Source of the DNA: an uncultured Spirochaetota bacterium
Lineage (GTDB): Bacteria; Spirochaetota; Brevinematia; Brevinematales; JAOACQ01
Assembly (NCBI GenBank): GCA_963768055.1
Contig: CAVYGN010000002.1
Coordinates: 1,632,001 to 1,696,000, forward strand
Reading direction: 5' to 3'
Length of the DNA stretch: 64,000 bases
Numbering within the stretch: the first letter of the stretch is position 1; every line of letters begins with the position of its first letter. Below are positions 9,141 through 32,609 of the stretch, in pieces. The translations under genes were made by a program, and so were the position numbers. The notes beneath the pieces were generated by a model. The model saw only the letters and a list, made by a program, of their open reading frames with translations. It did not search any database and had not been told where the DNA came from.

Positions 9141-11483
9141 TTAAAATTCAATCCTAAAACCTCCAAGAGGCATAATAGAAAAATCTTGTAATTCAGCCTG
9201 AGTTAGTTGCCCATTATTTATGGTGTAATAATATGATATGACATTGTTATAATTTAAAGCATTTAAAACTTCAACATAAAAATACATTTGAGCATATGGA
9301 CCAAAAAATCCTTTTAATAAACCACCTCCTAATGGGATTGTCAATTTTAAATCGAGCCTACAATACCACGGAGTATAAGTACTGTCATAAGCTCCGTAAT
9401 AAATTTCATACTGTGTAGAATTTGTGGCAGGAGTATAAGGTAATCCACTCATAGCTGTTAATTGGACTGTAAATTTCCATTCGTTTAGAAAATCGAAAAA
9501 TAAGGATTGGTCAGGGTTTTTATAATAAGTCATTTCAACAAGGATTGAGATTGTATGTGACCTCAAGTAATCCGGTACAAACCACTGGTCCAGTTGTTGA
9601 GAATAGGGTATATTAGGGTTATCAGGTGAACGATTCGTTATTTCCTCAAGGCCGTATACATAAGTATAAGAAATCCACCCAGAAAGCCAATCACCCTTCT
9701 TTGGCTTTTTTTGAAGGTAAATATCACCCCCGTAAACATTTCTTAGCCCATCATTATTATAATTTAATAAAGAATCTGTTTCATCAAGATCGTAATAATA
9801 CTTGTAGAAGCCTTCAATCCTTAACATATAATCATTATCCGAATAATCCACACCGGTAATAGCATGATAAACCTTCTCGCTTTGAAGATTTGGGTTGCCA
9901 ATATTACTGATCAAATAATTAAACTGGGGAAAATCATGATAAAAGCCTCCTCTTAAATACAAATCAAGTTCTTTTGTGCATTCCAGCTTAATCCCTCCCT
10001 GAGGGTCAAAGGCCGATTCTTTATTCAGGCTGAAATACTCCTCCCTGCCTCCGAGTTCTAGAATAATTGATGGAAAAATTTCCCAGTTATCCATTAGGTA
10101 AACTCCATAATAAGAGGATTGTGATGGGCCATATGAGTAATTAAAATTCTGGTAATTGGATAGGAACCAACCTTGTTGGTTATTGTAAAAATAGTTGTTA
10201 TACTGGTTGGTTTCACAATAAAATCCAGGGTTATCATAAATAATAATTCCGCCAATCTGGATTTTGTGACCCTCGATAGAATTCAAATAATAATCAGAAC
10301 TAAGCTGATACCAGGTATTGTTAAAATTAACGTTTCCAAATAAATACGGTTCTTGACTATAAGTATTGCTTCCGTTCTCAGAAGAATCACCAGCAACAAT
10401 ATCAAAAAAGTCCCCCGAATCGAAACGATGGCTATATTTCAAGCTCCCAATAAAGTTAAGTATCTGATATTGATAGCTTCCTTTAAATCCAGAAAGTACT
10501 TGAGGGTTATCATTGCCGTTCCCAAGGTCCCATTTTTCTCCTTCTAGTGAGAAATAAGCAACAATAGAAAGATTGTCGTAATGTGTAATATCCCAGCAGA
10601 ATTTTGATATACCATCCCATAGATAAGGCCATTCTTGGACCAAAGACCTCTGATTTGTCGGGAGGAAAAGTGGATAATACAGATCATAATAGGTTCTGCG
10701 CATATCAAAAGAGATAGTTAGATTTGATGTTATAGGGCCCTCCAAAAGCACTTCGGATTCTATCGGAGAAATATCGATGAAACCTTTCCATCTTTCTTTA
10801 CTCCCATTAATAGTATCAACAACTATTACACCGGAAAGACCCTGTCCAAACATGGAAGGGTAAGCAGCCGTGTAAAGATTTATGCTGTCAACAAAACTTG
10901 GATTGAACATGGATATTGTGTATATACCGCCACTCCACCTCGTTGGGTTCATGATATAAATCCCATCCATGTAAGCAATCCATTCAGTACTGTTACCACC
11001 TTGAATAAACATACTGCTGTCCATTGCACTACCCCCCGATGAAACACCCGGCATAAGCTGAAGGGTTTTAAAAGAATCATTTATAATACCCTGGGAATTG
11101 GCTTCAATTTCCTCTTTATTTACAGTATTTTCAGTATCTACCCTTCCACTATTTCTTTTTGATTCGATGTTAATCTCTCCTAAAGAATATACTGATGGTT
11201 TAAGGCATATTTCTATATTTAAATCCATGCCATTTATTTCTATAGTATTGGAGTATTTTTCATACCCGGCAAGCATTGCATAAATAGTGTATTTCCCAGT
11301 AGGTATATTTTTGAATATACAGATACCTTTTTCGTCAGTCAAGAGATTTGCATTGTTTTCAAGGATAGAAAGACTGGCGTCTTCAAGAGGGATCCTTCCG
11401 TTGTTAACTTGTACAGTCAGTTCCGCTGAAAAAGAGAGAACATAAATAAAGACTATTAATATTGTGGTCTTCAATCTTTGCAT
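9141..11483 (-). CDS. TonB-dependent receptor with N-terminal carboxypeptidase-regulatory-like domain
   Basis: Signal peptide, LTDEKG..F.NIPTGKY domain, plug LQLMPGV...IQGG...DGI, aromatic beta strands, C-terminal Phe (GFRIEF). Confidence 0.88.
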   Translation of the reverse strand: MQRLKTTILIVFIYVLSFSAELTVQVNNGRIPLEDASLSILENNANLLTDEKGICIFKNIPTGKYTIYAMLAGYEKYSNTIEINGMDLNIEICLKPSVYSLGEINIESKRNSGRVDTENTVNKEEIEANSQGIINDSFKTLQLMPGVSSGGSAMDSSMFIQGGNSTEWIAYMDGIYIMNPTRWSGGIYTISMFNPSFVDSINLYTAAYPSMFGQGLSGVIVVDTINGSKERWKGFIDISPIESEVLLEGPITSNLTISFDMRRTYYDLYYPLFLPTNQRSLVQEWPYLWDGISKFCWDITHYDNLSIVAYFSLEGEKWDLGNGNDNPQVLSGFKGSYQYQILNFIGSLKYSHRFDSGDFFDIVAGDSSENGSNTYSQEPYLFGNVNFNNTWYQLSSDYYLNSIEGHKIQIGGIIIYDNPGFYCETNQYNNYFYNNQQGWFLSNYQNFNYSYGPSQSSYYGVYLMDNWEIFPSIILELGGREEYFSLNKESAFDPQGGIKLECTKELDLYLRGGFYHDFPQFNYLISNIGNPNLQSEKVYHAITGVDYSDNDYMLRIEGFYKYYYDLDETDSLLNYNNDGLRNVYGGDIYLQKKPKKGDWLSGWISYTYVYGLEEITNRSPDNPNIPYSQQLDQWFVPDYLRSHTISILVEMTYYKNPDQSLFFDFLNEWKFTVQLTAMSGLPYTPATNSTQYEIYYGAYDSTYTPWYCRLDLKLTIPLGGGLLKGFFGPYAQMYFYVEVLNALNYNNVISYYYTINNGQLTQAELQDFSIMPLGGFRIEF

Positions 11484-11608
11484 GTTGAAACTCCGAAGTG
11501 AACAATATATATTTCTATTCAGATAAAGAAGTTATTATTGACAATTAAAGGATAATTTCAAGGTTTACATCTCCGATATTGATAAATTGACAGGACAAGC
11601 GAACCAAG

Positions 11609-12220
11609 TCATAAATCAAATGTTTTTTTTGGCTTCAATTCGTATCCAAGTAAATAATCTGTTGTAACATTAAATAATTCGGCGAGTTTATAAATAATAT
11701 CGGAGGGTGGAGTTTTATCACCTACCTCATAGGATGTTATTGTAGTTCTGTTCAAATTAAGACGTTTTGCAACATCGTCTTGACTAAGATTGTAAAGTTT
11801 TCTTAAATATCTGATTCTGCTACCTGTTGAGATTTTTTTATTTTGACAAAATTCTACGCTTTTTATAGCCGATTCAATTGTGATAATTATATTATCAATG
11901 TTACCACCTTTTTCACAGTAACTTTGTATATCTAATGTATCTAGGGTTTTTAAACCAGGAGCTTCATTACCGTAACCTGTAAGTAATAAAATATAGATAT
12001 CTTTATTGAACTTTCTTATTTCGTTTACTACCCATATGCCATCATGTTCGTCTATACGGTGATCGAGAATTAATATATCATAAAATTCATTTTTAATTTT
12101 CTCTATACCTTCCAGCGAACTCATAACACCATCAATATAGTATTTATCAGATAAAAAAGCTTTTATAGTATTTATAATAGCCGGGTCATCATCAATTACA
12201 AGTATGCGTATACCGTTCAT
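11609..12220 (-). CDS. Response regulator, REC plus XRE-family HTH
   Basis: ILVIDDD...ILILD...LLTGY...K receiver; RIRYLRK..LSQDDVA...TITSYEVG..LAELFNVTTDYLLG XRE domain. Confidence 0.9.
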   Translation of the reverse strand: MNGIRILVIDDDPAIINTIKAFLSDKYYIDGVMSSLEGIEKIKNEFYDILILDHRIDEHDGIWVVNEIRKFNKDIYILLLTGYGNEAPGLKTLDTLDIQSYCEKGGNIDNIIITIESAIKSVEFCQNKKISTGSRIRYLRKLYNLSQDDVAKRLNLNRTTITSYEVGDKTPPSDIIYKLAELFNVTTDYLLGYELKPKKTFDL

Positions 12221-13446
12221 ATGCTTGCCACTCCTTTTGGTATTTTTATATAAAAACTTGTATGGTTATCATATGAATCATACGAAATTACCCCATTAAA
12301 CCGCCCGCGTATAATAGTTTGTGCTATATAAAGACCAATTCCAGTGCCTTTATTTCCTTTCGAGGTGCACATATTCACAAATAATTTTTTCCTAATATCT
12401 TCTGGTATTGGATTCCCTTTATTAGTAATTGCAATTATCAATTCATTTTTATTTGCTGTGACAGTCAAATCTATTATTTTGTCATTAGAAGCTTCCATTC
12501 CGTTCGTCAGAATTGTGTTGCAAACTTGAACTAGAGAATCGATATCGCCATTTATTATATAGTTTTTGCATTCAATATTTGTTTTTAAAATAATTTCATG
12601 AACCTTCAGTTCATAGTCCATAAGTAGAAGTATACGCTCTATCAAATCATTTATATTAAAACTGTTAATCTCCTTTTCTTTTACCTCTACGGTTATTGCT
12701 TGACCTTTGACCGCATTTATCACATTAGTCATATAAATGTTGTTGTTATTTATGAGTACTTTCCAATATTCCATCTGTCTCATGAGTAAATCCATAACCT
12801 TAGGGTCAAATGAATTCTCTTTATACAATTGATTAATTTTAGAAATACACTCGTTAATTACCCGTATTCCAGCACTTGAAGTCATTAGAGGAGTTTTTAG
12901 ATTATGAGCCACCCCACCAATAATCTGACTTAAAAATATGAGACGTTCGTTTTCGATTATCTGCTTCTGCCTTTCCTCAATTGCTATTATATCCTGCATA
13001 AGAATATCTTGAGATTCTACAACACGCGAGAATTTCTTATCACTGCTCTGATTGCCATTTATTATTTCTTCCTCATTCAGCCATTTTAAGGCTTTATCAA
13101 CAGAATCAAAAATTTTAATGTCATATCTTTTGGCTACAGCAAATATATTTTGGGCAATGATACGTTGTTCAGGACTATTTACCACTGTAGCACTGCGGTA
13201 TATAATTTTTGCGTTTGGATTTTGCAATGATAGTGCGATTTTTATAGTTACATCCCGACCAAAATCCCATCCAAAATCCTGTACATCAGTTAAAACTTTA
13301 ACTTTACCATTTTGAGCACCAACTCGGCCTATTAGCTCATATAATTCTCTGTAGGCATCGTTCAGTTGGCCGAGTGACATGGTTGTTCGATATTTGAAAT
13401 ATATTATCCCATCATCCCTTAGATGGCAAAGTTTTAACTTTCCCAT
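12217..13446 (-). CDS. Soluble sensor histidine kinase with SpoIIAA/STAS-like N-terminal domain
   Basis: H box VAHNLKTPL, N box, GTGIGL G2 box; no TM segment; N-domain ends IFDSVDKALKWL. Confidence 0.85.
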   Translation of the reverse strand: MGKLKLCHLRDDGIIYFKYRTTMSLGQLNDAYRELYELIGRVGAQNGKVKVLTDVQDFGWDFGRDVTIKIALSLQNPNAKIIYRSATVVNSPEQRIIAQNIFAVAKRYDIKIFDSVDKALKWLNEEEIINGNQSSDKKFSRVVESQDILMQDIIAIEERQKQIIENERLIFLSQIIGGVAHNLKTPLMTSSAGIRVINECISKINQLYKENSFDPKVMDLLMRQMEYWKVLINNNNIYMTNVINAVKGQAITVEVKEKEINSFNINDLIERILLLMDYELKVHEIILKTNIECKNYIINGDIDSLVQVCNTILTNGMEASNDKIIDLTVTANKNELIIAITNKGNPIPEDIRKKLFVNMCTSKGNKGTGIGLYIAQTIIRGRFNGVISYDSYDNHTSFYIKIPKGVASI

Positions 13447-13967
13447 TATAACTTTCCTTTTTTAACAAAACTTTCAGGGATTTTTGTTTTCAATAACTCG
13501 TATAGATCGGGGGCTTCTTTTTCTATTCTGACTGGTCGTTTAACAGAATTAAGCCATACATGTGAACTTATGGCGGTGACGACAAGTTCTGAACTTTTTG
13601 CTTTTTCTAAATCTTCGGGTTTTAGAGTATTTGCTCCTTGAATTATATCAAAATTAACTCGTCTAACCTCATACTCAAAAGAGAATCGAAGGCTCTGCAT
13701 GTCTTTTATTTGTGTAAATATAACTATGTTATCATCAAAAAAAGCAGGCTTTTTATACTGGATGGAAAGATCGGTCACGATTATGAATATTCCACGTTTT
13801 TCCATCTCTGCATACGAGAACCCGTACTGTTTAATTATACTTGATCTAGCCAGTTCCAACCATGGCAAATAACTACCGTGATAAACAATGTTCTGTGGGT
13901 CGCATTCGGGATAGCGGACATTTAAACAATAAGTAAACATTTTCACAACCTCACGATTTTTAAACAC
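13446..13967 (-). CDS. Hot-dog fold acyl-CoA/ACP thioesterase (YbgC/4HBT family)
   Basis: VRYPECDPQNIVYHGSYLPWLELAR, YKKPAFFDD. Confidence 0.9.
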   Translation of the reverse strand: MFKNREVVKMFTYCLNVRYPECDPQNIVYHGSYLPWLELARSSIIKQYGFSYAEMEKRGIFIIVTDLSIQYKKPAFFDDNIVIFTQIKDMQSLRFSFEYEVRRVNFDIIQGANTLKPEDLEKAKSSELVVTAISSHVWLNSVKRPVRIEKEAPDLYELLKTKIPESFVKKGKL

Positions 13968-14131
13968 TTAATTATAACTTTTTTAATGAATATGTCTAAA
14001 AATTTCAACAAATTTGAAAAAATATTTTCAAATATTATTGACATTTAAAATAATGCAACATATTATATAATAATGTCTGTATTCATGGCATTTTTGCGAT
14101 AATTGTTATAATAATTTGCACAATTTAATTC

Positions 14132-14199
14132 AAAAAAGTACTTTAATACAAAAAAAGTACTTGAGTACTATTGACACTACACGATTTTATTTTTAAGAT
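14132..14199 (+). promoter_or_regulatory. Sigma70-like promoter TTGACA-N17-TAAGAT preceded by three AGTACT boxes
   Basis: TTGACA 14171-14176, TAAGAT 14194-14199; AAAAAAGTACTT at 14132 and 14151; AGTACT at 14137, 14156, 14164. A second TTGACA-N17-TATTAT lies at 14038-14066. Confidence 0.5.
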
Positions 14200-14534
14200 G
14201 ATGACACTAAAAATTCTAAGCAGTTTATTTAAGAGTAAATTTATGAGAAAGTCCAGGCGATTGATTCAATTAAAGTGTTTTGATATTGAGATAATATTTA
14301 GGTTTAAAAAAATATAAGGAAAGATTTAAAAGTTTGTACAGCTAAACAAAAAGAAGTCAGGAAATATTTAATTTATTTAAACGTAAATTGAGTTTACTTG
14401 AGTTTGTTAAAAATGTAAAAAATCATTTGTATTGAAATGAGTTTGAATAATAGAATGTCAAGATCTTGGAAATGCAGATTCGATTTGACTAATTTTCCAT
14501 TATTTAAAGGTTAAAATATTTTGTGTGAGAAAAA

Positions 14535-15233
14535 ATGAAAAATAATCGTATTATTATTGGAATCATTGATAGTGGTGTCGACAGAAGGTTTATTATTGAA
14601 AATGGTGCTAAAATTAAAAAAGCGTCCGCATTTAATATAATACAAGAAAGCCGACTTGTAGAGTGTATTGAATATAGTAAAAAAGATATAAAAAAATGGC
14701 TAGCTGGAAAAATCGATCATATATCGGATGAACATGGCCATGGGACTTCTGTTCTTTCTATAATTTGGGGAATTTTACCCAATGCTGAATTCGTGGTTTC
14801 AAAGGTTCTTGACCATGAAAAAAAAGGATATTCGATATGCCTTGTAGAAGCGCTTCGTTGGATGATAGAAAAAACTGATGTCCTTATAATAAATATAAGC
14901 ATTACGACAAATGATACAAATATTAAGGATGATATGTTAAAACTTGTCAAAGAAGCAAAAAAGAAAGGTATAGTTATATATTCAGCGAAAGATAATGAAT
15001 ATAGTATACCTGCTTCTGTTGATGGTGTTGTTTCAGTAACTGATTTTTTAACAATAAATAAAGTCGGGCAATATTCTCTACTAAAATCGGACGTTGTAAT
15101 TGAAAAAAAGGAAGAATTAATTTGGTGGGAAGGCGAATGGATTCAAGATCCTATTAAACCAAGTTGGGCTTGTGCAGTAGCTGTTTCTAAAAAGTTTGAA
15201 ACTGGACATAATTTTAAAAAGAGATTTGTATGA
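14535..15233 (+). CDS. Minimal cytoplasmic S8 (subtilisin-like) peptidase, candidate leader peptidase
   Basis: IIDSG (Asp), DEHGHGT (His), IINIS, PSWACA (Ser, deviant from GTSxA); no signal peptide. Confidence 0.78.
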   Translation: MKNNRIIIGIIDSGVDRRFIIENGAKIKKASAFNIIQESRLVECIEYSKKDIKKWLAGKIDHISDEHGHGTSVLSIIWGILPNAEFVVSKVLDHEKKGYSICLVEALRWMIEKTDVLIINISITTNDTNIKDDMLKLVKEAKKKGIVIYSAKDNEYSIPASVDGVVSVTDFLTINKVGQYSLLKSDVVIEKKEELIWWEGEWIQDPIKPSWACAVAVSKKFETGHNFKKRFV

Positions 15234-17134: not shown

Positions 17135-17238
17135 CTTATATAATAATAAATAATAAAATTAAACGTAAAAACATATTAATTGACATTATGATTGAAAATT
17201 TTACAAACCTTATAAAGTTAAGATTTTTATTAATGAAA

Positions 17239-17560
17239 TTCCCGGTTGGAGATAAAATAGGTAAAAAGGAGTATTTATGAAGAAAAACCCTGTCAGGTTT
17301 TATGACATTCCTGAGTCATTAAAGGAAATTTATGCTCTTGGTTCTGGTAGCGGTAATAGTGGTTCTGTAGCAGGAGATTGTTGTTCTGTTACTAATACAA
17401 CTTCTACTTGTGGTTGTGTTGGCTGGATGGCAAGTGCTAATACAACTTGCCAGACTAATACTTTTTCCTCTGCATCATTCTTTAAGAAACCACCCGCAAA
17501 AAGAATAATTAAGTAATATCTTAAAACAATAATTTCAAGTTAATTATCTCCAGCTGGGAA
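17239..17560 (+). other. 17-bp long-range RNA helix enclosing the precursor gene
   Basis: UUCCCGGUUGGAGAUAA (17239-17255) pairs fully with UUAUCUCCAGCUGGGAA (17544-17560) using two G-U wobbles. Confidence 0.7.
17277..17516 (+). CDS. RiPP precursor peptide (Cys/Ser/Thr/Asn-rich)
   Basis: 79 aa, AAGGAG RBS, charged leader, Gly/Ser linker, 5 Cys in core; lies among three radical SAM genes. Confidence 0.85.
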   Translation: MKKNPVRFYDIPESLKEIYALGSGSGNSGSVAGDCCSVTNTTSTCGCVGWMASANTTCQTNTFSSASFFKKPPAKRIIK

Positions 17561-17585
17561 AATTATATTAAAGAGAGAAAAGAAT

Positions 17586-18695
17586 ATGAAATATACAATA
17601 ATATTAACTCAAAAGTGCAATCTAGCATGTAAATACTGTTTTGAACATAATAAAGAGAATAATTATCTTAAAGAAAATATGATACCTTCAATCTTAGGAT
17701 TTATTAATTATTATCAAAATCAAGAATTTGTTTTAGATAAAAATATATCGATAGTTTTTAATGGCGGAGAACCACTTCTTAATTTTACAGTATTAAAAAA
17801 ATTACATATTGCTTTGGAAAAAATTGGTGTTAACGATTTTTCGATTTCTACAAATTTAACATTATTAACAGATGAAATTATTACTTATTTATATAATAAC
17901 AAGTTTATTTTACATATTAGCCTTGATGGAACTAAAGATATTCATAATAAAAACAGAATCTTCAAAGATGGAAAAGGAACATTTGATATTGTTTATAATA
18001 ATGTTGTGAAAATTAGGAAAAAATATCCTGATTGGAATAATTCATATAATATTACAATTTCTCCAGGCACTGTACATGATTTATATAATAGTTTTAGATT
18101 ATTAACAGATTTGGGTATAAGGAGAATTACAGCTGCATATTGTGCGGATTATGAAATGAATGAAAATAATATAGAAATATTCAAAAATGAAATGAGAAAA
18201 ATTAGTAAGGATTATATTGCTTTCTATGAAAATAATGAAAATATCTATTTTAAATTTTTAACCGATGGTATTTTATACACAATAAATAATAAAAAAGCAG
18301 CATGTGGAGTATGTAAGAGCGAAATTGCTATATTACCTTCAGGTGAAATATTGCCATGTGTGGTTTTTGTTGGACAAAATAATTATAGAGATTACATTTT
18401 AGGTACTTTGAATAGTTCATTGAATTATAATAAAATTAATATGCTTTTAGATAAGAAATTATTTAATTTGTCTGAATGTAATAATTGTAGTTTACTTCAA
18501 AGATGTTTTGTTGAATGTTATGCGGTAAACTTAAGAGTTATGGGGAATTTATTTGATATACCAGATTGCTATTGCCATATCAATCAGATTTGTTTACAAG
18601 AAGCTGAATATGTTATTAATGATTTATATAATAAAAAGAATAAACTATTTATTAATCAATATAATCTTAGCAAATTAAATAAAGAATCAATTTAA
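17586..18695 (+). CDS. Radical SAM/SPASM peptide maturase 1
   Basis: CNLACKYC, GGEPLL, SLDG, SPASM CGV...GEILPC...CNNCSLLQRCFVEC...C. Confidence 0.92.
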   Translation: MKYTIILTQKCNLACKYCFEHNKENNYLKENMIPSILGFINYYQNQEFVLDKNISIVFNGGEPLLNFTVLKKLHIALEKIGVNDFSISTNLTLLTDEIITYLYNNKFILHISLDGTKDIHNKNRIFKDGKGTFDIVYNNVVKIRKKYPDWNNSYNITISPGTVHDLYNSFRLLTDLGIRRITAAYCADYEMNENNIEIFKNEMRKISKDYIAFYENNENIYFKFLTDGILYTINNKKAACGVCKSEIAILPSGEILPCVVFVGQNNYRDYILGTLNSSLNYNKINMLLDKKLFNLSECNNCSLLQRCFVECYAVNLRVMGNLFDIPDCYCHINQICLQEAEYVINDLYNKKNKLFINQYNLSKLNKESI

Positions 18696-18714
18696 AATTA
18701 ATTGGGGAAATAAT

Positions 18715-19836
18715 ATGTATGGATTAATATTAACTGAGAGTTGTAATATGTCATGTAAATATTGTTTTGAAAAACATAAAAATTATGGTCGACAAATGAA
18801 TGATGAAATAATTATTAGTGCTGCTGATTATATTGTTAAAGACTATATAAATAAAGGTAAAGAAGATTATTTTGTAGTTAATATTACAGGTGGAGAACCT
18901 TTCCTTAAATTTGATCTTTTGAAAAAATTATTACTAGAAATAAAAGAGAAAATGAGTATTAATAAAATTAAGCAATATTCGTTTGAAATATCAACAAATG
19001 GTACAATAATAAACGAAGGTATAATAAAATTTATTATAAAAAATAATATTAGATTATTTGTTGGATTCGATGGTATTAAAAAAAGTTATAATGAAGGGCG
19101 TTTTTTTAAAGACCAACCAGGTGTTTATAATATTGTTTATAAAAATATTTTAATATTAAAAGAAAAGGTGAATAAAAATAATATTGTTTTGAATCTGGTT
19201 ATTACTCCAGAGAATGTACAATATTTAAATCAAAATATTAATTTTATGTATATTCTTGACTTACAAATGTCAATTACATTTGCTTATGAACAAGAGTGGA
19301 GTGAGAAATCTATTGTAATATTGAGAAAAGAGTTTCTAATATTTCTTAATTTTTATAAAGATATTGTTAAAACAAATCATGATTTTAGTATTGGATTAAT
19401 TGATAAAACTATAAAACAATGTTTATTTCCTCGTAATTATTATCCTGGTATATGTAGTGCTGCAGAACCCCAACTTGTTATTTTGACTGACGGCAACATT
19501 GTACCTTGTGGCAGTTTTTGTTATATACAGGATAATAATACTGATTTTATTATTGGAAATGTATTTCAAGGAATAGATGAGAATAAACGTTTAAAATTCA
19601 GAAAGTCATTAGAAAATATAGATTTTGAGGAATGTAAAGGTTGTTTATTTATAAATAAATGTACTAATTACTGTACTGCCATAAACTATCTTGTAACAAA
19701 TAATACTCAAGAAATACCAAGTTCTGTTTGTGAAATTAATAAAATATTGATTACCGGATGTGAATTATTAATTGATAATTTGACTAAAGAAAATAGTAAC
19801 TATATAAAAGAGAAATATTTAAAAGAGGTTGATTAA
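18715..19836 (+). CDS. Radical SAM/SPASM peptide maturase 2
   Basis: CNMSCKYC, GGEPFL, GFDG, SPASM CSAA...GNIVPC...CKGCLFINKCTNYC...C. Confidence 0.92.
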   Translation: MYGLILTESCNMSCKYCFEKHKNYGRQMNDEIIISAADYIVKDYINKGKEDYFVVNITGGEPFLKFDLLKKLLLEIKEKMSINKIKQYSFEISTNGTIINEGIIKFIIKNNIRLFVGFDGIKKSYNEGRFFKDQPGVYNIVYKNILILKEKVNKNNIVLNLVITPENVQYLNQNINFMYILDLQMSITFAYEQEWSEKSIVILRKEFLIFLNFYKDIVKTNHDFSIGLIDKTIKQCLFPRNYYPGICSAAEPQLVILTDGNIVPCGSFCYIQDNNTDFIIGNVFQGIDENKRLKFRKSLENIDFEECKGCLFINKCTNYCTAINYLVTNNTQEIPSSVCEINKILITGCELLIDNLTKENSNYIKEKYLKEVD

Positions 19837-22179
<2,343 letters not shown>

Positions 22180-22257
22180 TAAAATACAATGATATCTTAA
22201 TGGTAAAATTATTTAATTTGTTGATTTGGAATAAATATTTAAGGAATTGGAGGCTAT

Positions 22258-22761
22258 ATGTTGGATTTGGCTTATTTAAATATTGGAACTTTGAAACAAT
22301 TGTATATGCAGTACATCAAAAAAAATGAAAATAAGTATTATTTGATTGACTTCTTTAGTAACTACGATATTCAAATCGATCCAAATGATTGGAATCGAAT
22401 TCAATATGTTAGTAAAGATTTTAACGGTAATATCATTGCTTATTTTGAAGCAAGAATAAATCGAGGATTTAATATTATTAATGATTTAGAAATATTAAAA
22501 TTTATTGAATATCCCAATATAATATGGATTCATGATTTTATCAGATTTCTCAAAGTGTTATTGCTTGAAAAAAACTTCAGAAAAGTGGTTTTTTATGCTA
22601 TCATAGACAACCCATCTTTTACAAAATGTGAACTATATTTATTGAAGTATAAATTGGTTAAAGAAGTTGGTGTAATGAAAAACCATTGTATTCTTAATGA
22701 TGGAAAAATTTATGATATGAAAATTTTTGAGATTGAAAGAGATAATTTAGGAAAATGGTAG
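22258..22761 (+). CDS. GNAT-fold (RimJ/RimL-like) acyltransferase, copy 1
   Basis: NFRKVVFYAIIDNP...EVGVMKNH.ILNDGKIYDMKIFEI; clear paralogue of 26310..26843. Confidence 0.72.
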   Translation: MLDLAYLNIGTLKQLYMQYIKKNENKYYLIDFFSNYDIQIDPNDWNRIQYVSKDFNGNIIAYFEARINRGFNIINDLEILKFIEYPNIIWIHDFIRFLKVLLLEKNFRKVVFYAIIDNPSFTKCELYLLKYKLVKEVGVMKNHCILNDGKIYDMKIFEIERDNLGKW

Positions 22762-22767
22762 AAAATA

Positions 22768-23541
22768 ATGATTTTTAATATTTTATTAAAACTATCAATA
22801 AGAAATCTTTTTCGTCATAAAACAAAGAATCTGCTCGTTGTCCTTATGATCATGACGGGCTGTTCCCTGTTTTTTATAGCTTCCTCGCTTGAATGGAATA
22901 TCAGGGATAACTGGAGGCATTACCTTTCAGATACGGTCTTGGGAGATTACTATATAACTTCGATAACGGGGATCGGCGACGATTACCGTTTTTTTAACAC
23001 TGTCCCGCCGCTGAAATTTATCAATAAGGAAATTATTGATTTTCTCGACAGGAATAAAATTCAATATTCATGCAGGATAAGGACCGGGGCAAAGTATTAT
23101 GATGAGAAGCTCGGGTTTCGGGATTTCAACAAATTCCTCGGTATAGATTTTTTAAAGGAGGAAAAGATCCTCTCCAATATATTGATTTATGACGGCACAT
23201 TCGAACCTGCCTCAGATAACGGCATGGATTTTTTCTGGAATCCTTCCTGGAATTATCAGCCGCCGGTCGGGACAAACCTTGTGGTATTAATTCTTGCACT
23301 TGCCGGATATCTGATTGGTGTATTCATCGGTGCTTTGTCAGGCAGTATAATTGAAAATATGCGGATATACCTGGTGTTCCAGGATTATATGAACGGACCT
23401 GTAATGTTCATTCATTCCTTTTGGGATTTTCTCTACATACTGCTGTTCATATTATTACTGACAGCGGTTTGGAGCATTCCGGTAATTAACCGGATCGTCT
23501 CGAAAGCCCCCGCGAGGGTATTCAGGGAACAATCGTATTAA
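22768..23541 (+). CDS. FtsX/LolE-like ABC permease, short and probably internally deleted
   Basis: LSIRNLFRHKTKNLL N-terminus and C-terminal TM helices, but only 257 aa. Confidence 0.6.
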   Translation: MIFNILLKLSIRNLFRHKTKNLLVVLMIMTGCSLFFIASSLEWNIRDNWRHYLSDTVLGDYYITSITGIGDDYRFFNTVPPLKFINKEIIDFLDRNKIQYSCRIRTGAKYYDEKLGFRDFNKFLGIDFLKEEKILSNILIYDGTFEPASDNGMDFFWNPSWNYQPPVGTNLVVLILALAGYLIGVFIGALSGSIIENMRIYLVFQDYMNGPVMFIHSFWDFLYILLFILLLTAVWSIPVINRIVSKAPARVFREQSY

Positions 23542-23552
23542 TTGGAGTATTT

Positions 23553-24326
23553 ATGAAGAATTGGATTTTACTTATTACAGCGGCAGTATTAACGGCGGTC
23601 TATTCATTATCTTATTGTATCGATCCGGGCGATGTTATTTCTAAATCCGATAAGCGATTTATACCGGATATATTCACTTATAACATGACCCTCCGGACTA
23701 CTTCGGCAAACGGCAAGATTGATGTAGTGGATTATAAGGGGAAAAAGAAACACGAAAATAATATAATGATCACAATAAATCCGGTCAGTGCAAGGGGGCA
23801 GGTCAACCTGAAAAACAGGAACGTGATATGGAGTTACTTTCCTACCTCGGATACAAGTATAAAGTATAGCTACCAGGCAATAATCCTGGGGACGTCGGTA
23901 AGTTACGGCGACATCCTGGCGCTTGAGCTTTCCCGCGATTATGACGTCCGGTCGATGATCGAAACCTCGAGCCTCGAAACCAATGGCCTCGAGGATCCGG
24001 CCTCGACGAATAAGTTTTATCTGCTGACGCTTGGGCCTAAAAAAGATGTCGACGGATATGCGAAAATATTTTTGTGGATAAATACGGCGAACTTTCTGCC
24101 TGTTAAGAGGCAGTACTACGCTTTATCCGGGCTCCTGGTGAAATCCTGCGAGATACAGGGTATTTCCTTCGATGATAAAGGCGTTGTAAGCGAGTGTAAA
24201 GAACTGTTTTATGAACCCCTGAAACAAAAGCAAACCCTGGTAACCTTTTCCAATGTTATTATTATGAGTGATATTCGCGATAAGACATTCAATCCGAAAG
24301 CTATGAAATTTTTCAGCGGAGAGTGA
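23553..24326 (+). CDS. Outer membrane lipoprotein-sorting (LolA-like) protein
   Basis: Signal peptide; ILGTSVSYGDI...YAKIFLWI...YYALSGLLVK...FNP pattern; next to permease and ATPase. Confidence 0.75.
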   Translation: MKNWILLITAAVLTAVYSLSYCIDPGDVISKSDKRFIPDIFTYNMTLRTTSANGKIDVVDYKGKKKHENNIMITINPVSARGQVNLKNRNVIWSYFPTSDTSIKYSYQAIILGTSVSYGDILALELSRDYDVRSMIETSSLETNGLEDPASTNKFYLLTLGPKKDVDGYAKIFLWINTANFLPVKRQYYALSGLLVKSCEIQGISFDDKGVVSECKELFYEPLKQKQTLVTFSNVIIMSDIRDKTFNPKAMKFFSGE

Positions 24327-25579
24327 ATTTGATTAAAATTTCAATCTTTATCCTTCTGCTTTTTCTTCCCATGGAGCTATTTTCATTGGATATAAGCTCA
24401 GTCATAAACACCGGTTTCGATGTTCAATCGGTTAACAGCAATTCGCTGCTTTACCCGCTGAATTTGCTTCAGAGCGGGGGTTACACGAACGAGGGCTTCG
24501 ATTACTATGTCAATGCCGATGTAATAATGAAAAGCGCGATGGGCGAGATCGGGAAGGGTTATCTGGATGTCAGATTCAGTTATTATCCGAAAACATTTCT
24601 TACAAATACCCCCTGGCAGTATTTTAATATTGTTGAGGGTTATGCTGACCTGGCGACCGAGGACTTTTTGCTGCGCATAGGGAAGCATTTCATGCACTGG
24701 GGCGATGGGGTCGCTTTTAATCCCGTCGATATAGTGGATTTGAGAAAAGATCCCCTGTCATATACCGGATATGACCAGGGGAAGCCGGGGGCTGATATAA
24801 CGGTTCCCATAGGTGATTTCAGTTCTTTTTCAGCTTTAAGCGTTGTCGACAGCACATTAACTACGAACATTGACAATCTGCCTGCCATATTGCAATATTT
24901 CTTATCGATAGATATGTTCGACGGGTTTATATTCGCCGATTTTCAGAAGAATTACAAGCCCGAATATGGCGGCAACATCGATTATGTCATGTCTGTAAAA
25001 AATAATATAAATTTAAAACTATATTCCCAATTAACCTACAGAGAGGACAGCTACCGTGAGTTCGCCGCCGAAACGAATGGAGTTCCGTACCTTGAAAATA
25101 TGACCAACAATTACTACGCTGCCTGGGCTGTAGGCGGTAATCTTACCTTTTCTTTTACAGAGACGCCGTTGATCGACGGTATAATAATTTCCGCCGAATA
25201 TTATTACGATGACGAGAACTGGAGCAAAAACGCTTATCAGAATTTCCTGTCGTATATAGATGCGCAGACGAATAATAATAATGTTCCCGCATATATGAAC
25301 GCTATGCTGCAGGAGCAATACCTCAGGAATTCTAAAAGCTATTTTTTTTCAGCGCTTACTTTCCAGGGGCTGTTTGATAAAGATTTCAGCCTGACCGGTT
25401 CTGTGGTCCTTAACATTGACGATCTGAGTTTTGTAATTTATCCCTCGATGTCGTATCAGATCAACCTGGATACCAGGATATCGATAGGAGCCCAGTTTTT
25501 TTGCGGCGGCCAGGACAGCGAATTCGGCAGTATGTCGCAGCTTTTTTCCGTAAACGCCAATTTAACGGTTTCATTTTGA
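24323..25579 (+). CDS. Putative outer-membrane beta-barrel protein
   Basis: Signal peptide, LRIGKHFMHWGDGVAFNPVD, C-terminal Phe. Confidence 0.65.
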   Translation: MNLIKISIFILLLFLPMELFSLDISSVINTGFDVQSVNSNSLLYPLNLLQSGGYTNEGFDYYVNADVIMKSAMGEIGKGYLDVRFSYYPKTFLTNTPWQYFNIVEGYADLATEDFLLRIGKHFMHWGDGVAFNPVDIVDLRKDPLSYTGYDQGKPGADITVPIGDFSSFSALSVVDSTLTTNIDNLPAILQYFLSIDMFDGFIFADFQKNYKPEYGGNIDYVMSVKNNINLKLYSQLTYREDSYREFAAETNGVPYLENMTNNYYAAWAVGGNLTFSFTETPLIDGIIISAEYYYDDENWSKNAYQNFLSYIDAQTNNNNVPAYMNAMLQEQYLRNSKSYFFSALTFQGLFDKDFSLTGSVVLNIDDLSFVIYPSMSYQINLDTRISIGAQFFCGGQDSEFGSMSQLFSVNANLTVSF

Positions 25580-25595
25580 AACAAAGGAGCATCTC

Positions 25596-26266
25596 ATGAT
25601 TAAAATCAGTGGTGTAGAAAAGACCTATTATCTTGGAAAATCTACGATCGAGGCGTTGAAGGGAATAAATGCAGCTTTTAATAAAGGCGAATTTACATCC
25701 GTGGTCGGGCCGTCGGGCAGCGGAAAATCCACGCTGCTTAACATTATAGGCTGCCTTGACAGGCCTGATCGGGGAGAGGTAGTAATAAGCGGTGAAAATA
25801 TTACCTCTTTAAAAAGCAACAGGCTTGCCGATATCAGGGCCGAAAAGATAGGCTTTATATTTCAGTCCTTTAACCTTATACCTGTCCTAATGTATATGAA
25901 AATATCGAGCTGCCTTTGAATAATATTAATAAATACAAATCGAAAAAGGAAAAGAGGGACAGGATCATAGAACTCATAGAGCATGTAGAGCTTGGCTGTT
26001 ATTTAAAGCACAGGCCTGAGGAGCTTTCAGGAAGCCAGAGGCAGCGCGTGGCTATCGCCAGGGCCCTGGTTACGAATCCTGAAATAGTCCTTGCCGACGA
26101 ACCGACGGCAAACCTCGATTCTGAAACAGGCAGGATGATAATAGAACTCATGAGAAAGATCAACAGGGACTACGGCACTACATTTATATTTTCAACCCAT
26201 GACTTGAATATAATGAAATATGCCGAAAGAGTGTTAAATCTAAAGGATGGAAGAATTTTTAACTGA
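25596..26266 (+). pseudogene. LolD/MacB-type ABC ATPase with 1-nt frameshift
   Basis: GPSGSGKS in ORF 1; LSGSQRQR and LADEPT in ORF 2. CTAATGTA near 25889 lacks one A of the expected LNVYENIELPL. Confidence 0.85.
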
Positions 26267-26309
26267 TATTTAATATGGTTTCATAACATAATTAAAAAGA
26301 GGTATTTCT

Positions 26310-26843
26310 ATGCTAGAACTAGCATACTTAAATCAAGAAAAGTTACAAGATATTTATTCAAAAAGGATTACTTCTAAATTTAATAAGTATTATTTTTTTG
26401 AAAGTTATTATGATTATATTTTACCAATTGACCAAAATGATGAAAAAAAAATACAATACGTTGGAAAAGATAATGAAGGCAATATAATCGGCTATGCAGG
26501 TGCATGGATTAATCGTACTCATAATATTATTGAAAGGATGGAAATAATAAATTTTACAGAAAAGCCAAAATTAGAAGGATCAAGGAATTTATTTGATTTT
26601 CTAGAAATTATTCTTATCAAAAAGAATTTTAGAAAAATTGTTTTTTATGTGGCTGTAGAAAATCCAGCTATTAAATTGTATGAGAAATTCATGAATTTTG
26701 GAGAAGGAATAGGGAAAAAAGTTGGTATTTTAAAAGAACATTATACTCTAAATGATGGAAAGAATCATGATGTTGCTATATTTGAAATTTACAGGGAAGG
26801 TTTTACAGAATGGTTTAGAAAAAAAATAAAAAAAGACTTTTAA
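26310..26843 (+). CDS. GNAT-fold (RimJ/RimL-like) acyltransferase, copy 2
   Basis: VAVENPAIKLYEKF...VGILKEHYTLNDGKNHDVAIFEI. Confidence 0.75.
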   Translation: MLELAYLNQEKLQDIYSKRITSKFNKYYFFESYYDYILPIDQNDEKKIQYVGKDNEGNIIGYAGAWINRTHNIIERMEIINFTEKPKLEGSRNLFDFLEIILIKKNFRKIVFYVAVENPAIKLYEKFMNFGEGIGKKVGILKEHYTLNDGKNHDVAIFEIYREGFTEWFRKKIKKDF

Positions 26844-26911
26844 TTAAAAAGATTGAAAAATAGAGAATAAAATATTTTGGATTTTTTTAGATAAAAAAGA
26901 GGAGGATTTTT

Positions 26912-27172
26912 ATGATAAAAGAAGATTTCAAAAACATTAATGAATTAATATTTGAACTAAAGAAAATGATTTCAAGTCAAATCAAATTACAAGGAGAAGA
27001 TTTCGATGAAAATAAGGATTTTGTCTCCGACTATGGAGTAGATTCTCTTGATTTGCTTTTATTGATTTCGGAAATAGAAGATATTATGAAAGTGAGAATC
27101 GAAACAGAAGATGCTGAAAAGATGAGGACTTTTGCAGATGTAAGAAAATATGTTGAGAGTAAATATTTATAA
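26912..27172 (+). CDS. Acyl carrier protein
   Basis: Acidic 86 aa with DYGVDSLDLL phosphopantetheine Ser motif. Confidence 0.92.
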   Translation: MIKEDFKNINELIFELKKMISSQIKLQGEDFDENKDFVSDYGVDSLDLLLLISEIEDIMKVRIETEDAEKMRTFADVRKYVESKYL

Positions 27173-27236
27173 ATATATCGAATAGTATATAAAGAATGTA
27201 TTATCAAAATATAAAAAATAAAGAGTAAATAATATT

Positions 27237-28448
27237 ATGAGAGTTTATGTTGGTAGTCTGGGTATAATTGTTTCAAATGGGAAAAATATTCTTGATTTCA
27301 GCAATAATATATTTGCCGGGAAATCTGGGATTAAAAAGTTGTCCAATGATGATTACTCTGATATTCCTGTTAGGATTGGAGGTGAAATTATAAATGATTG
27401 GCTTAAAGATTCCGATCTTTCTGAAGAAAGATCTTGGACATTATTGGAAATTGCTGCAGATGAGGCTATAAAGATACAAAAAAATAAAATCTTTAAGTTA
27501 GAATCAGACAGGATAGGTGTTTTTGTTGGGACATCATATGCTGGATCAAATACTATACTAGAGAATTATAAGCATTATTTAAATAAAGAAATATACAAAG
27601 TTTCTCCGTTGACAATGATTAAAGCTATGCGATATTATGCTGCCAGTAATTTAGCCAGAAAATATAAAATCGAAGGTCCCTTACTGGCTTATGATACAGC
27701 TTGTTCTTCTTCACTTCATGCTTTAGGCAATGCTTATAAAATGATTCATTCAAATTTGTTGGATTTAGCTATAGTTGGAGGGGTAGAAACACCACTAACA
27801 CCAACAAGTATCATATGCTGGGACCGTTTACGGATTTTGGCTAATAATGAAGATAATCCGGATAAAGCCTCCTCTCCTTTTGATAAAAAAAGTCCTGGTA
27901 TTGTGTTGGGTGAAGGAGCGGGTGTTATAATCCTTCTAAGTGAGGATGTTATGAATAAAATGGATATTCCACCTTTGGCTGAAATTGCAGGATATGGCTA
28001 TTCTAATGATCCAACGCACATTACTAAATCTAATTTTAAATATATGATAAAATCTATGCAAAAAGCATTATCAGATTATCCCGGACTCAAAGATACAATT
28101 AATTATATTCAAGCTCATGGTACGGGAACTAAGATAAATGATATGGAAGAAGCAAGAGCGATAAATACATTATTTGGTAATCAATCTAATAATATTAAGG
28201 TTAATTCAATAAAATCAATGGTTGGCCATTTGCTTGGCGGCAGCGGAATAATTTCGGCAATAACTACTATTATACAGATTAAGGAAAAGAAATTACACCC
28301 TAATCTAAATCTTGAAGATCCATATAATGATTACCAAATTAACTATGTTGGGGCAAATAAGGAAAGTTGGAATATATGTGTGGGCATTGTAAATGCATTT
28401 GCATTTGGTGGAAGCTTTGCTTCGATATTGATTAAGTATGTGAACTGA
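27237..28448 (+). CDS. Beta-ketoacyl-ACP synthase (FabF/FabB type)
   Basis: Intact triad TACSSS, AHGTGT, KSMVGHLLG; LGEGAG; NAFAFGG. Confidence 0.93.
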   Translation: MRVYVGSLGIIVSNGKNILDFSNNIFAGKSGIKKLSNDDYSDIPVRIGGEIINDWLKDSDLSEERSWTLLEIAADEAIKIQKNKIFKLESDRIGVFVGTSYAGSNTILENYKHYLNKEIYKVSPLTMIKAMRYYAASNLARKYKIEGPLLAYDTACSSSLHALGNAYKMIHSNLLDLAIVGGVETPLTPTSIICWDRLRILANNEDNPDKASSPFDKKSPGIVLGEGAGVIILLSEDVMNKMDIPPLAEIAGYGYSNDPTHITKSNFKYMIKSMQKALSDYPGLKDTINYIQAHGTGTKINDMEEARAINTLFGNQSNNIKVNSIKSMVGHLLGGSGIISAITTIIQIKEKKLHPNLNLEDPYNDYQINYVGANKESWNICVGIVNAFAFGGSFASILIKYVN

Positions 28449-28472
28449 ACCAAAATGAAATTAGAATAATAT

Positions 28473-30269
28473 ATGAAATTAATAGCGATAAATAAAAAAG
28501 ATTGGCCCCTGATAAAAAGAGCATTTAACTATGTTAAACCGAATAAATTCAAATTTGCATTTTCTTTTTTCCTTCTACTTGTAGGAATTAGTTTTAATTT
28601 AATTCTCCCTTACTTATGGGCAAAAATTATTGCCTGTATTTTTAATAAAGATTATAATACTTTAATATTTATTGTAATCTCTATTACTATTGTACTAATA
28701 ATACAATCTATATATGGGCTTTTACAAAATTATGTTTCAACTTCATTATATCAAGAAATAGTTTACAATGTCAAAAAAGACATGTACAAAAAAATTTTAG
28801 ATTTACCTATGAAAGCATTTGATCAACTACGTGCAGGTGATTTTATTTCAAGGTTACAAGGTGATGCAAACACAATTTCTCAGGTTATTACAGGACAATT
28901 CTTAAACTCGGTTGTTGACGTATTAAAAATAATAACATTTGGAATAGCTGTTTTCTGCATTAACCTGCCCATGGCGATAATGCTTTTAATAACTTTTCCT
29001 TTGTCATTAATTGTATTTATTAAATTTGGCAAGCTTATGCGAGAGAAAAACAAGGAAATGGCAGAAATGAATGATAATTATTTTAGCAATGTACATCAGT
29101 CAATAACTGGTATAAGGGAAATAAAGGGATTGGGAATTAAAAATCAAAATTACTTGACTTTTATATCATTATTAAAATTGATGAAAGAAAAAGTTATTAA
29201 CATAAACATCTTTGGAGGAATATCCCAGCTTATTACACAGACTTTCAACTACATTTCAGAAATTGGGGTGATAATTGTTGGAGCATATCAAATATACAAA
29301 GGTTTTTTAAAAATAGAGTTCTTCATAACTTTTACATCATATTCTATTCAATTTTCTGAATCAATAATGAATATTAGTAATTTAAATAATAATATTCAAC
29401 AAGCAATGACTTCTTTAGAAAGAATATTTGGTATTATGGATAATTTGAATTATCAGGAATATAATTATGGAAATTTGAATTTAAAAAACATTGAAGGAAA
29501 TATAAAATTTGATGGTATTACATTTGGGTATAATGAAAACTCGAATATTTTGAATAATGTTTCTTTTGAGATCCAGAAAAATAAAAAAATAGCTATTATA
29601 GGAAAAAGTGGTAGTGGAAAATCAACAATATTTAACCTTATACAAAATTTTTATAAACCTCAATTGGGAAAAATTCTAATTGATGACATAGAACTCAATA
29701 AATTAAGTGAAGATTGCTTAAGGGAACATATTTCAATAGTCAGGCAAGAACCTTTCCTTTTTAATTTATCAATTAAAGATAATTTGTTACTTGTTAATCC
29801 AACTGCTAAAGATGATGATGTAATTAACGCTTGTAAATTAGCTTTTATTCATGAATATATTTCAAATTTACCTGAAGGCTATAATACTTTAGTACAAGAT
29901 GGTGGAGCAAATTTCTCGGTAGGGCAAAAGCAAAGGATAGCTATTGCTAGAGTTTTATTGAAAAATACAAAAATAATATTATTTGATGAAGCAACTTCTT
30001 CATTAGATAATGAATCTCAATATTATATTAAAAAGGCCATTGACAATCTTTCATTAAATCATACGGTAATAATTATTGCCCATAGATTACTAACTTTTAT
30101 TGAAAGTGATGAAATAATTTTACTTGATAAAGGAATTATTGCCGGTATTGGCAATCATTCAACTTTGATTAAAAATAATGAAATCTATAATTTGTTATAT
30201 CATATGGAATTGGATACTTATAATAAAAGTCAAAATCTTTCTTTGTTAAAAGATGTCAACACTTTTTAA
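28473..30269 (+). CDS. ABC exporter, fused TMD-NBD (no C39 domain)
   Basis: Six-TM N-half; GKSGSGKS, FSVGQKQR, LFDEATS, IAHRL. Confidence 0.93.
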   Translation: MKLIAINKKDWPLIKRAFNYVKPNKFKFAFSFFLLLVGISFNLILPYLWAKIIACIFNKDYNTLIFIVISITIVLIIQSIYGLLQNYVSTSLYQEIVYNVKKDMYKKILDLPMKAFDQLRAGDFISRLQGDANTISQVITGQFLNSVVDVLKIITFGIAVFCINLPMAIMLLITFPLSLIVFIKFGKLMREKNKEMAEMNDNYFSNVHQSITGIREIKGLGIKNQNYLTFISLLKLMKEKVININIFGGISQLITQTFNYISEIGVIIVGAYQIYKGFLKIEFFITFTSYSIQFSESIMNISNLNNNIQQAMTSLERIFGIMDNLNYQEYNYGNLNLKNIEGNIKFDGITFGYNENSNILNNVSFEIQKNKKIAIIGKSGSGKSTIFNLIQNFYKPQLGKILIDDIELNKLSEDCLREHISIVRQEPFLFNLSIKDNLLLVNPTAKDDDVINACKLAFIHEYISNLPEGYNTLVQDGGANFSVGQKQRIAIARVLLKNTKIILFDEATSSLDNESQYYIKKAIDNLSLNHTVIIIAHRLLTFIESDEIILLDKGIIAGIGNHSTLIKNNEIYNLLYHMELDTYNKSQNLSLLKDVNTF

Positions 30270-30344: not shown

Positions 30345-30376
30345 ACATGTGAGATAATTCTCATTATCTCACATGT
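30345..30376. other. dif-like recombination core site
   Basis: Perfect inverted repeat; core ATGTGAGATAA-TTCTCA-TTATCTCACAT (11-6-11) 140 bp upstream of a tyrosine recombinase. Confidence 0.7.
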
Positions 30377-32597: not shown

Positions 32598-32609
32598 TAC
32601 TGGCTCCTT

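Follow-up and report, generated by a model that had tools for sequence, protein, structure and literature searches.

A conserved spirochaete operon combining radical SAM peptide-maturation genes with dedicated fatty-acyl genes

A 64,000-nucleotide stretch of the genome of an uncultured spirochaete of the order Brevinematales (contig CAVYGN010000002.1, positions 1,632,001 to 1,696,000; hereafter the window) contains a run of co-oriented genes, at 14535-30269, in which a small cysteine-containing peptide and three enzymes of the radical S-adenosylmethionine (rSAM) type are encoded together with an acyl carrier protein (ACP), a ketosynthase (KS) and two GNAT-fold proteins. An earlier note on this DNA had proposed a cluster for a peptide made on the ribosome and modified after translation (RiPP), an assignment that gene content and synteny both support. 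As judged from sequence, the locus is a real, conserved and rare RiPP operon, a hybrid RiPP/fatty-acyl cluster. We put the chances that its product is an acylated, rSAM-cross-linked peptide at about even. The cluster works most like goadvionin-type acyl transfer grafted onto a ranthipeptide-like core and belongs to neither family.

The run comprises 16 genes with intergenic gaps of -4 to 142 bp (Table 1). Each gene named in the earlier note was found at the position and on the strand given there; two items had been omitted, the 780-aa ChaN/EreA-like protein and the cassette of FtsX, LolA-like, outer-membrane and ATPase genes. All biosynthetic genes of the operon have open reading frames (ORFs), and among the 20 ORFs scanned none matched LanB, LanC, LanM, LanKC or YcaO, as had been stated.

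Table 1. Features of the operon and of its surroundings (window coordinates). RRE, RiPP recognition element; pLDDT, predicted local distance difference test; G043, second Brevinematales genome (see text).
Feature	Position	Strand	Remarks
Thioesterase / histidine kinase / regulator / TonB receptor arm, divergent	9141..13967	-	not in conserved cluster
Short S8 protease, candidate leader peptidase	14535..15233	+	Pfam Peptidase_S8 E 1e-9; 64% to G043
Class-B-like rSAM enzyme, 634 aa	15230..17134	+	CX4CX2C; model pLDDT 86
Precursor peptide, 79 aa	17277..17516	+	AAGGAG ribosome site; conserved position
rSAM/SPASM maturase 1 (SPASM1), 369 aa, no RRE	17586..18695	+	NCBIfam best PapB; CteB nearest solved
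rSAM/SPASM maturase 2 (SPASM2), 373 aa, no RRE	18715..19836	+	31% identical to maturase 1
Secreted ChaN/EreA-like hydrolase, 780 aa	19837..22179	+	motif residues kept in homologues; Atlas lead only
GNAT-fold protein 1 (GNAT1)	22258..22761	+	43% identical to GNAT2; 68% to G043 orthologue
FtsX/LolA-like/outer-membrane/ABC-ATPase cassette, broken in this copy	22768..26266	+	intact in G043
GNAT-fold protein 2 (GNAT2), candidate acyltransferase	26310..26843	+	model pLDDT 95; directly 5' of ACP
Dedicated ACP, Ser45	26912..27172	+	NCBIfam ACP matches E 2.5e-14
FabF-like KS, Cys-His-His intact	27237..28448	+	separate clade in tree
ABC exporter, no peptidase domain	28473..30269	+	73% identical in G043
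Terminator-like hairpin, 14 pairs, 3' of exporter	30345..30376		9 such sites vs 5.4 +/- 2.6 in shuffles: weak

The operon recurs intact in a second genus

The full set, GNATs, ACP and KS included, recurs in G043, a Brevinematales genome of the same family and a different genus (the genome under study is G000). All 16 genes lie there in the same order: S8 protease, class-B-like rSAM, precursor, SPASM1, SPASM2, hydrolase, GNAT1, two FtsX permeases, LolA-like protein, outer-membrane protein, ATPase, GNAT2, ACP, KS and exporter. The G043 cluster is inserted among hydrogenase-maturation genes, between hydE and aspA/hydF, and this fixes both cluster ends. The parts expected to touch the substrate are the most divergent between the two copies (precursor 34% identity, SPASM1 45%, SPASM2 37%, hydrolase 32%), as against 59-76% for the add-on genes (ACP 62%, KS 71% and, best kept of all genes, GNAT2 at 76%).

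The divergent arm, which the earlier note had counted as part of the cluster, exists but does not adjoin the cluster in G043. The closest G043 matches to its thioesterase and histidine kinase (30% and 32%) lie on other contigs, and its TonB receptor has paralogues of 57-62% identity elsewhere in G000. For these reasons the arm was excluded. Within it, the two-component pair (window positions 11609-13446) combines a receiver plus XRE-type helix-turn-helix with a kinase whose sensor is SpoIIAA-like; a search of five family members found no orthologue.

Comparison of related loci separates a core from an acyl add-on

A profile of the SPASM1 clade, run against 401 genomes of the phylum, matched 12 at E<=1e-45 and only G000, G043 and a third genome, G131, at E<=1e-138; of 401 genomes from the family of G131, one matched. 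Eight weaker SPASM loci, from six order-level genomes, proved to be unrelated systems (22-26% identity), and further matches in G032, G119, G154 and G289 fell outside the set of loci opened. Scans of the collection returned 9 + 35 loci, eight of them in the SPASM1 clade (L020 is the G043 cluster, L033 and L034 represent a single locus, and L030, only 2.1 kb in length, was dropped as uninformative). The distant matches were rejected as members, 36 of the 44 collection loci being devoid of any ACP, KS, GNAT, S8 or class-B match. The comparison thus covers eight informative loci, six of them Treponema-like.

A precursor occupies the same place in 8/8 of these loci. GNAT and hydrolase genes are each found in 7/8, the contig of L032 ending before the hydrolase. 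All three Treponema-type loci of sufficient length contain HlyD and an exporter. The second SPASM enzyme is missing in L021 and L029, and the GNAT is absent from L021, which does have the hydrolase. The core thus consists of the precursor, one or two RRE-less SPASM enzymes, the ChaN-like hydrolase, usually a GNAT-fold protein, and an exporter. In contrast, ACP, KS, S8 protease and class-B rSAM were seen in just two loci, both from one bacterial family. Of the six loci without ACP and KS, four are cut short; in G131 and L021, whose flanks are complete, these genes are absent. The acyl genes are therefore an add-on to an older core, and the Treponema-type loci are a simpler form without it.

ACP and KS are additional to the housekeeping genes

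The cluster KS keeps C156, H294 and H331, and the ACP keeps the serine of its DSL motif. The host has a separate housekeeping FabF and ACP, five PP-binding matches besides the cluster ACP, and a phosphopantetheinyl transferase (PPTase), bearing out the suggestion that the pair is additional to the housekeeping fatty acid synthase (FAS). Four of 48 KS matches from 35 genomes of the order stand out at 45-100% identity; in the tree they group together with full support, separate from housekeeping FabF. A profile built on these four (whose own scores are circular) found no fifth member in the 401 genomes, and no match was obtained in plasmids at E<=1e-60. Each of the four comes immediately after an ACP gene, with an FtsX/LolA-like cassette nearby and a radical SAM gene at a distance of 2.5-9 kb; the FabF controls, with flanks of 1.5 kb only, give no fair background rate for an rSAM gene within 10 kb.

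One locus with a KS of this clade (G066:C2:73000-89300; L104, L105) encodes a SPASM enzyme unrelated to SPASM1 and SPASM2, a SPASM-like partner, a 33-aa Cys peptide and the ACP, along with a 433-aa protein beside the ACP-KS pair, an M50 peptidase, three paralogous secreted proteins and the FtsX/LolA-like cassette. Another, in G043 itself (G043:C57:22858-35664; L103), has an exporter, a CHASE2 protein, a class-B-like rSAM, a short-chain dehydrogenase/reductase (SDR), the transport cassette, a 251-aa protein, ACP and KS.

These arrangements bear on the possibility that two modules were co-inserted: a non-lipidated rSAM RiPP, at most acetylated, and an ACP/KS/class-B-rSAM/transporter module making a separate lipid or N-acyl metabolite. 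The core works without ACP and KS in Treponema-type loci, the G043:C57 locus combines class-B rSAM, SDR, cassette, ACP and KS with no precursor in sight, and core and add-on genes have diverged to different extents (32-45% vs 59-76% identity). Moreover, a lipid-biosynthesis model, TIGR04072, is the second-best NCBIfam match of the class-B-like rSAM, albeit far below cut-off. Still, the add-on genes flank the core on both sides, within one operon and in two genera; the G043:C57 locus is truncated by a contig end; the G066 locus associates the same KS clade with an independent SPASM/Cys-peptide set; and the class-B rSAM seems to carry an RRE-like domain (weak evidence, see below). We consider the two-module explanation rather unlikely and think it probable that ACP and KS serve the peptide pathway.

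GNAT2 belongs to a large family without the CoA loop

The GNAT2 model matches SpeG, PseH (Z 17.0, root-mean-square deviation 2.4, 162 residues aligned) and the lasso-peptide acetyltransferase 9iy3 (Z 15.5), within a Z range of 15-17. Its family counts 1144 representatives and bears no family name. Canonical acetyl-CoA GNATs carry a CoA pyrophosphate loop, Q/R-x-x-G-x-G/A. SpeG shows such a Gly-rich loop at the aligned place. GNAT2 thus shares the fold of SpeG/RimJ-type enzymes and lacks the motif, which is present in 0/131 aligned members of its family. Absence of the loop fits an acyl-ACP donor and also a loss of catalysis.

The latter possibility underlies an explanation in which acyl groups would still come from the cluster ACP, the KS acting as transacylase and the GNAT-fold proteins serving as non-catalytic binding, immunity or regulatory partners. 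The loop's absence throughout the family would be accounted for, as would the occurrence of GNAT2-family proteins with and without ACP and the lack of one at the G066 locus. Against it, the KS keeps both histidines needed for condensation, GNAT2 lies directly 5' of the ACP and is the best-kept gene, and the other KS loci have a different gene beside the ACP-KS pair, which would fit a separate transferase at each locus. This explanation seems to us quite improbable. That a GNAT places the acyl group of the cluster ACP on the peptide is, on sequence grounds, a proposition we would neither favour nor disfavour.

A GNAT2 search matched six of the 401 genomes, G000 included (a weak match of 52 residues in G247 was dropped). 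In spirochaetes the family occurs at seven loci: three are of the SPASM1 type, three have exporters of peptidase-ABC/HlyD type (one of them with another SPASM enzyme), and the seventh has a class-B rSAM, an arginase and a kinase, with no peptide seen. Searches for GNAT2 gave no match in plasmids and one phage GNAT. At three Treponema-like loci (L015, L016 and L137) the GNAT2-family protein lies beside the peptidase-ABC exporter and small ORFs of double-glycine type, and the family may thus have a wider role in peptide export.

The precursor and its SPASM enzymes

The precursor has a basic leader with a PVxxY-like motif, a Gly/Ser linker, five cysteines and a Lys-rich tail. The Cys content, described earlier as rich, is modest (5 in 79 residues). 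It matched no Pfam family and no NCBIfam model at E<=1. Across the eight loci the precursor leaders follow the pattern PVxxY..P..L.E, and the cores are rich in Gly and contain Cys-x-Cys or Cys-Gly; a single Cys is the only invariant residue in their alignment. Only the two precursors of the extended loci, those with ACP and KS, continue beyond their final Cys with a tail rich in Phe, Pro and Lys.

Both SPASM enzymes match the seven-Cys SPASM pattern, and both begin almost at the CxxxCxxC motif, leaving no room for an RRE. Here, then, a SPASM rSAM enzyme adjoins a Cys-containing precursor, the gene arrangement of ranthipeptides and sactipeptides, and the peptide is very likely the substrate of these enzymes. 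Their best NCBIfam match is PapB for both, at half the cut-off (177.6 bits for SPASM1, cut-off 340); none of the characterised maturase models (PapB, CteB/SCIFF, QhpD, RumMC) reached its cut-off (PapB 177/340, SCIFF 113/425, QhpD 134/453 bits). The nearest solved relative is CteB (E 4e-55), followed by anSME (5e-30). At the six catalytic-site positions of CteB-type enzymes, as defined in the part of PMC10288494 consulted, the residues are F,N,S,S,V,V in SPASM1 and F,F,T,S,H,Q in CteB (two identical, one similar).

This last comparison is among the reasons for supposing that the SPASM pair forms some other link (C-C, C-O, epimerisation or other), or that one member is a scaffold, a matter independent of acylation. 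Four of the six positions differ, and the Asn at position 2 is invariant in 17/17 aligned rows; all NCBIfam scores fall below cut-off, the RRE-less length resembles that of ChlB and DynA, and L021 and L029 make do with one SPASM enzyme. On the other hand, the E value of CteB is 25 orders of magnitude ahead of that of any other solved structure, and it is Cys, not aromatic residues, that the precursors keep. Because the residue kept is Cys, a thioether is our best guess and a fairly likely one; a different chemistry we take to be the less likely outcome.

The class-B-like rSAM enzyme and the S8 protease

The class-B-like rSAM is modelled with an N-terminal Rossmann-like domain and, in its last 100 residues, a beta3-alpha3 domain that appears to resemble an RRE. 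AprD4 heads its fold matches (Z 14.4), followed by MgmA, TsrM and OxsB. None of 24 family members matched the B12-binding Pfam PF02310, and C-methylation is for this reason only one option. When the RRE-like domain was compared, as a profile, to the N-terminal segments of 32 longer SPASM homologues, the match was weak (P 16%, E 0.0016) but exceeded all 13 non-overlapping control comparisons, the best of which reached E 0.039. A hidden Markov model search with the domain gave no clear match outside its own family and none in the PDB.

Relatives of the enzyme align over the full length at 42-44% identity, one cluster of relatives includes Gammaproteobacteria and Coxiellaceae records, and others, at 36-37%, come from Margulisbacteria; none was found in viral contigs, and plasmids gave partial matches only. 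Some relatives from other phyla are paired (P0282/P0284 and P0289/P0290) on contigs of equal size, 14058 and 39319 bases respectively, which suggests tandem duplication.

The S8 protease has no signal peptide. Its catalytic triad, assigned by eye, is Asp12/His69/Ser210, with an atypical serine motif (PSWA), and its best NCBIfam match is QhpE (58.8 bits, cut-off 165).

Hydrolase and transport cassette

The hydrolase has a hydrophobic N-terminus, a carboxypeptidase-regulatory-like N-terminal domain, a ChaN/EreA-like middle and a C-terminal PDZ domain. The ChaN assignment comes from Atlas scores of 0.81-0.85 and is a lead only; the motif GExH..E..RD..G.xHG is kept in six aligned homologues. If acylation of the peptide by a GNAT inside the cell were temporary self-protection, this secreted enzyme could, once the peptide is exported, take off the acyl group (or the leader). 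GNAT and hydrolase are both core genes and occur together in six of the seven loci where both could be seen; a signal peptide or lipoprotein signal is present on the hydrolase, which keeps catalytic-type residues. Yet its family assignment stays below 0.9 in Atlas with no Pfam match, and in L021 the hydrolase is present with no GNAT. We regard self-protection, which is compatible with the explanation favoured below, as improbable.

The cassette is damaged by an in-frame deletion of ~1.7 kb, fusing two permeases at 23282/23283, and by a 1-base frameshift in the ATPase near 25888, outside any homopolymer. Contigs from two low-depth DNA runs cover the operon in fragments and do not bridge the deletion. 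An intact copy elsewhere in the genome (G000:C2:422151-427618) is 96-98% identical in nucleotide sequence to window positions 22792-26241. Differences between the copies are mostly silent (in the LolA-like gene, 11 silent and 2 changed). The second copy lies between murB-like and flagellar genes, and both copies have host-like GC content, unlike the rest of the cluster; with their near-identity this suggests recent duplication or gene conversion. The composition of the cassette (0.40-0.43 vs 0.21-0.33) had raised the idea of a foreign insertion into the operon, dropped because G043 has the intact cassette at the same position.

A proposed pathway

The explanation that we favour, and to which we give an even chance as a whole, runs as follows. 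The SPASM pair would link thiols of Cys residues with unactivated carbons in the Gly-rich core. The class-B-like rSAM, docking on the precursor by way of its RRE-like C-terminal domain, would add a further radical modification, possibly methylation, after which the S8 protease would cut off the leader in the cytoplasm. The KS would extend or prime an acyl chain on the dedicated ACP, the host PPTase and FAS reductases providing the rest. GNAT2 would then move the acyl group from the ACP to a peptide amine, the new N-terminus by analogy with goadvionin, or possibly a Lys side chain. Finally, the ABC exporter and the FtsX/LolA-like cassette, provided here by the intact second copy, would carry the lipopeptide out.

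Besides the scarcity of ACP and KS among SPASM1-clade loci, several observations weigh against this scheme. The CoA loop is missing in the GNAT2 family even at loci without ACP and may therefore signal loss of catalysis; only 2/7 spirochaete loci of that family have ACP and KS, and its nearest Atlas clusters are mostly viral. The G066 locus joins ACP, KS and SPASM without a GNAT2-family protein, and no precursor was seen at G043:C57, where the contig ends upstream. The cluster itself has no reductase, dehydratase or acyl-loading gene, and its transport cassette is broken.

A broader, joint reading would see in this cluster the founding member of a spirochaete family of fatty-acylated rSAM-cross-linked RiPPs: a portable ACP-KS pair would join SPASM clusters that are unrelated and bring transferases of their own, the large GNAT family lacking the CoA loop would here take acyl-ACP, and the two RRE-less SPASM enzymes would rely in trans on the RRE carried by the class-B rSAM. 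We hold this to be doubtful.

Relation to known systems

Among the closest published arrangements are the CcpM/CLI_3235/SacP23 clusters (TIGR04065, 04066, 04068, 04069), which likewise combine a Cys-rich precursor, a SPASM maturase, an ACP-related protein, a subtilase and an ABC exporter; the composition of the TIGR04068/04069 clusters is given in the portions consulted of PMC10731318 (Table 3) and PMC4573289. KS, GNAT and class-B rSAM are not listed there, a single SPASM enzyme stands in place of two RRE-less ones, and the text consulted reports no lipidation. The ACP described here is not TIGR04069 (it is not among the two weak G000 matches), the SPASM enzymes reach 116 and 108 of the 500 bits required by TIGR04068, and the precursor does not match TIGR04065.

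Dedicated ACP and KS genes together with a GNAT recall the goadvionins and lipolanthines (microvionin, nocavionin), whose RiPP clusters contain FAS and polyketide synthase (PKS) genes and GNATs according to the sections of PMC9811515 available to us. Those are lanthipeptide/avionin systems of Actinobacteria, whereas here there is one KS with an ACP and no Lan enzyme, class III synthetase and LanD being also absent among the 20 ORFs. The goadvionin enzyme GdvG accepts only ACP-bound acyl units and acts on the N-terminus after leader removal, while the lipoavitide enzyme LpvE uses acyl-CoAs (bioRxiv 2023.10.25.564083, as far as consulted). The mechanism of acylation in lipolanthines was called uncharacterised in 2022 (PMC8784127, in the part consulted), so that the precedent cited in the earlier note for transfer from ACP by a GNAT stands for goadvionin and not for lipolanthines. 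Lipoavitides, in the same partial reading, have non-modular FAS genes and LpvE acylating the RiPP N-terminus; they differ by an aminovinyl-methylcysteine (AviMeCys) ring, FabH-type initiation and an acyl-CoA donor, as against FabF-type KS, ACP and SPASM enzymes here, where the scanned ORFs gave no decarboxylase or dehydratase family match.

Other GNAT-modified RiPPs come near in part. The aphotorhaptins, an N-acetylated daropeptide by the account in the pages of PMC13647313 consulted, are rSAM-cross-linked and N-acylated by a GNAT after leader removal, but with an acetyl group and with ether or C-C aromatic links. Selidamides and lipolassos also owe acylated amines to GNATs, and the top fold matches of GNAT2 include one acetyltransferase of a lasso peptide (9iy3); as described in the excerpts consulted, they are acylated on side chains from primary lipid pools, on lanthionine or lasso scaffolds, without dedicated ACP or KS. 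Ranthipeptides (thermocellin/CteB, freyrasin/PapB, QhpD with QhpE) comprise the closest families to the SPASM enzymes and the short S8 protease, but scores are below all cut-offs, the SPASM enzymes lack an RRE and have other catalytic-site residues, and the precursor is of neither SCIFF nor CX3D type.

A literature search found no cluster with KS, ACP, GNAT, SPASM and precursor together; subscription journals, supplements and the rSAM compendium dataset, outside its scope, may list one. To that extent the claim that the combination is undescribed stands, narrowed by the CcpM/SacP23 and daropeptide precedents. The claim of a new class was overstated, since ACP-like genes in SPASM/Cys-peptide clusters and a GNAT-acylated daropeptide are already in print in the sources consulted in part. 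Ribosomal lipopeptides with their own fatty-acid machinery have so far been reported, in the literature consulted, on lanthionine/AviCys scaffolds and from Actinobacteria. If the favoured explanation is correct, the same logic would extend to an rSAM-cross-linked scaffold and a new phylum (a free-living spirochaete), a large unnamed GNAT-fold family would gain a function, and a route to lipidating macrocyclic peptides would be opened. The natural pair of loci with and without ACP and KS, and the intact G043 copy, make the acylation claim directly testable.

Genomic setting and other observations

The cluster sits in a low-GC island (0.23-0.33 vs 0.415 for the genome), with an IS21-like element on one side and an integrase on the other. 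The IS21-like element (window positions 5148-7701) has two further copies in the genome, 99.9% identical. Within the island, after the cluster (30516-37701), lie the tyrosine integrase and an N6-methyltransferase of restriction-modification type. Rfam and tRNA scans of the window gave no match.

Two other SPASM systems were encountered. At L074, L075 and L076 (G221, G153 and G111) arrays of 4-7 paralogous ORFs of ~180 aa, sharing an N-terminal motif, lie directly upstream of an RRE-less SPASM enzyme, forming a system separate from this cluster. A genome of the same genus (G132:C23) carries at L081:13190-14812 a CXXX-repeat-like system, in which a SPASM enzyme and its partner are preceded by a repeat-rich small ORF.

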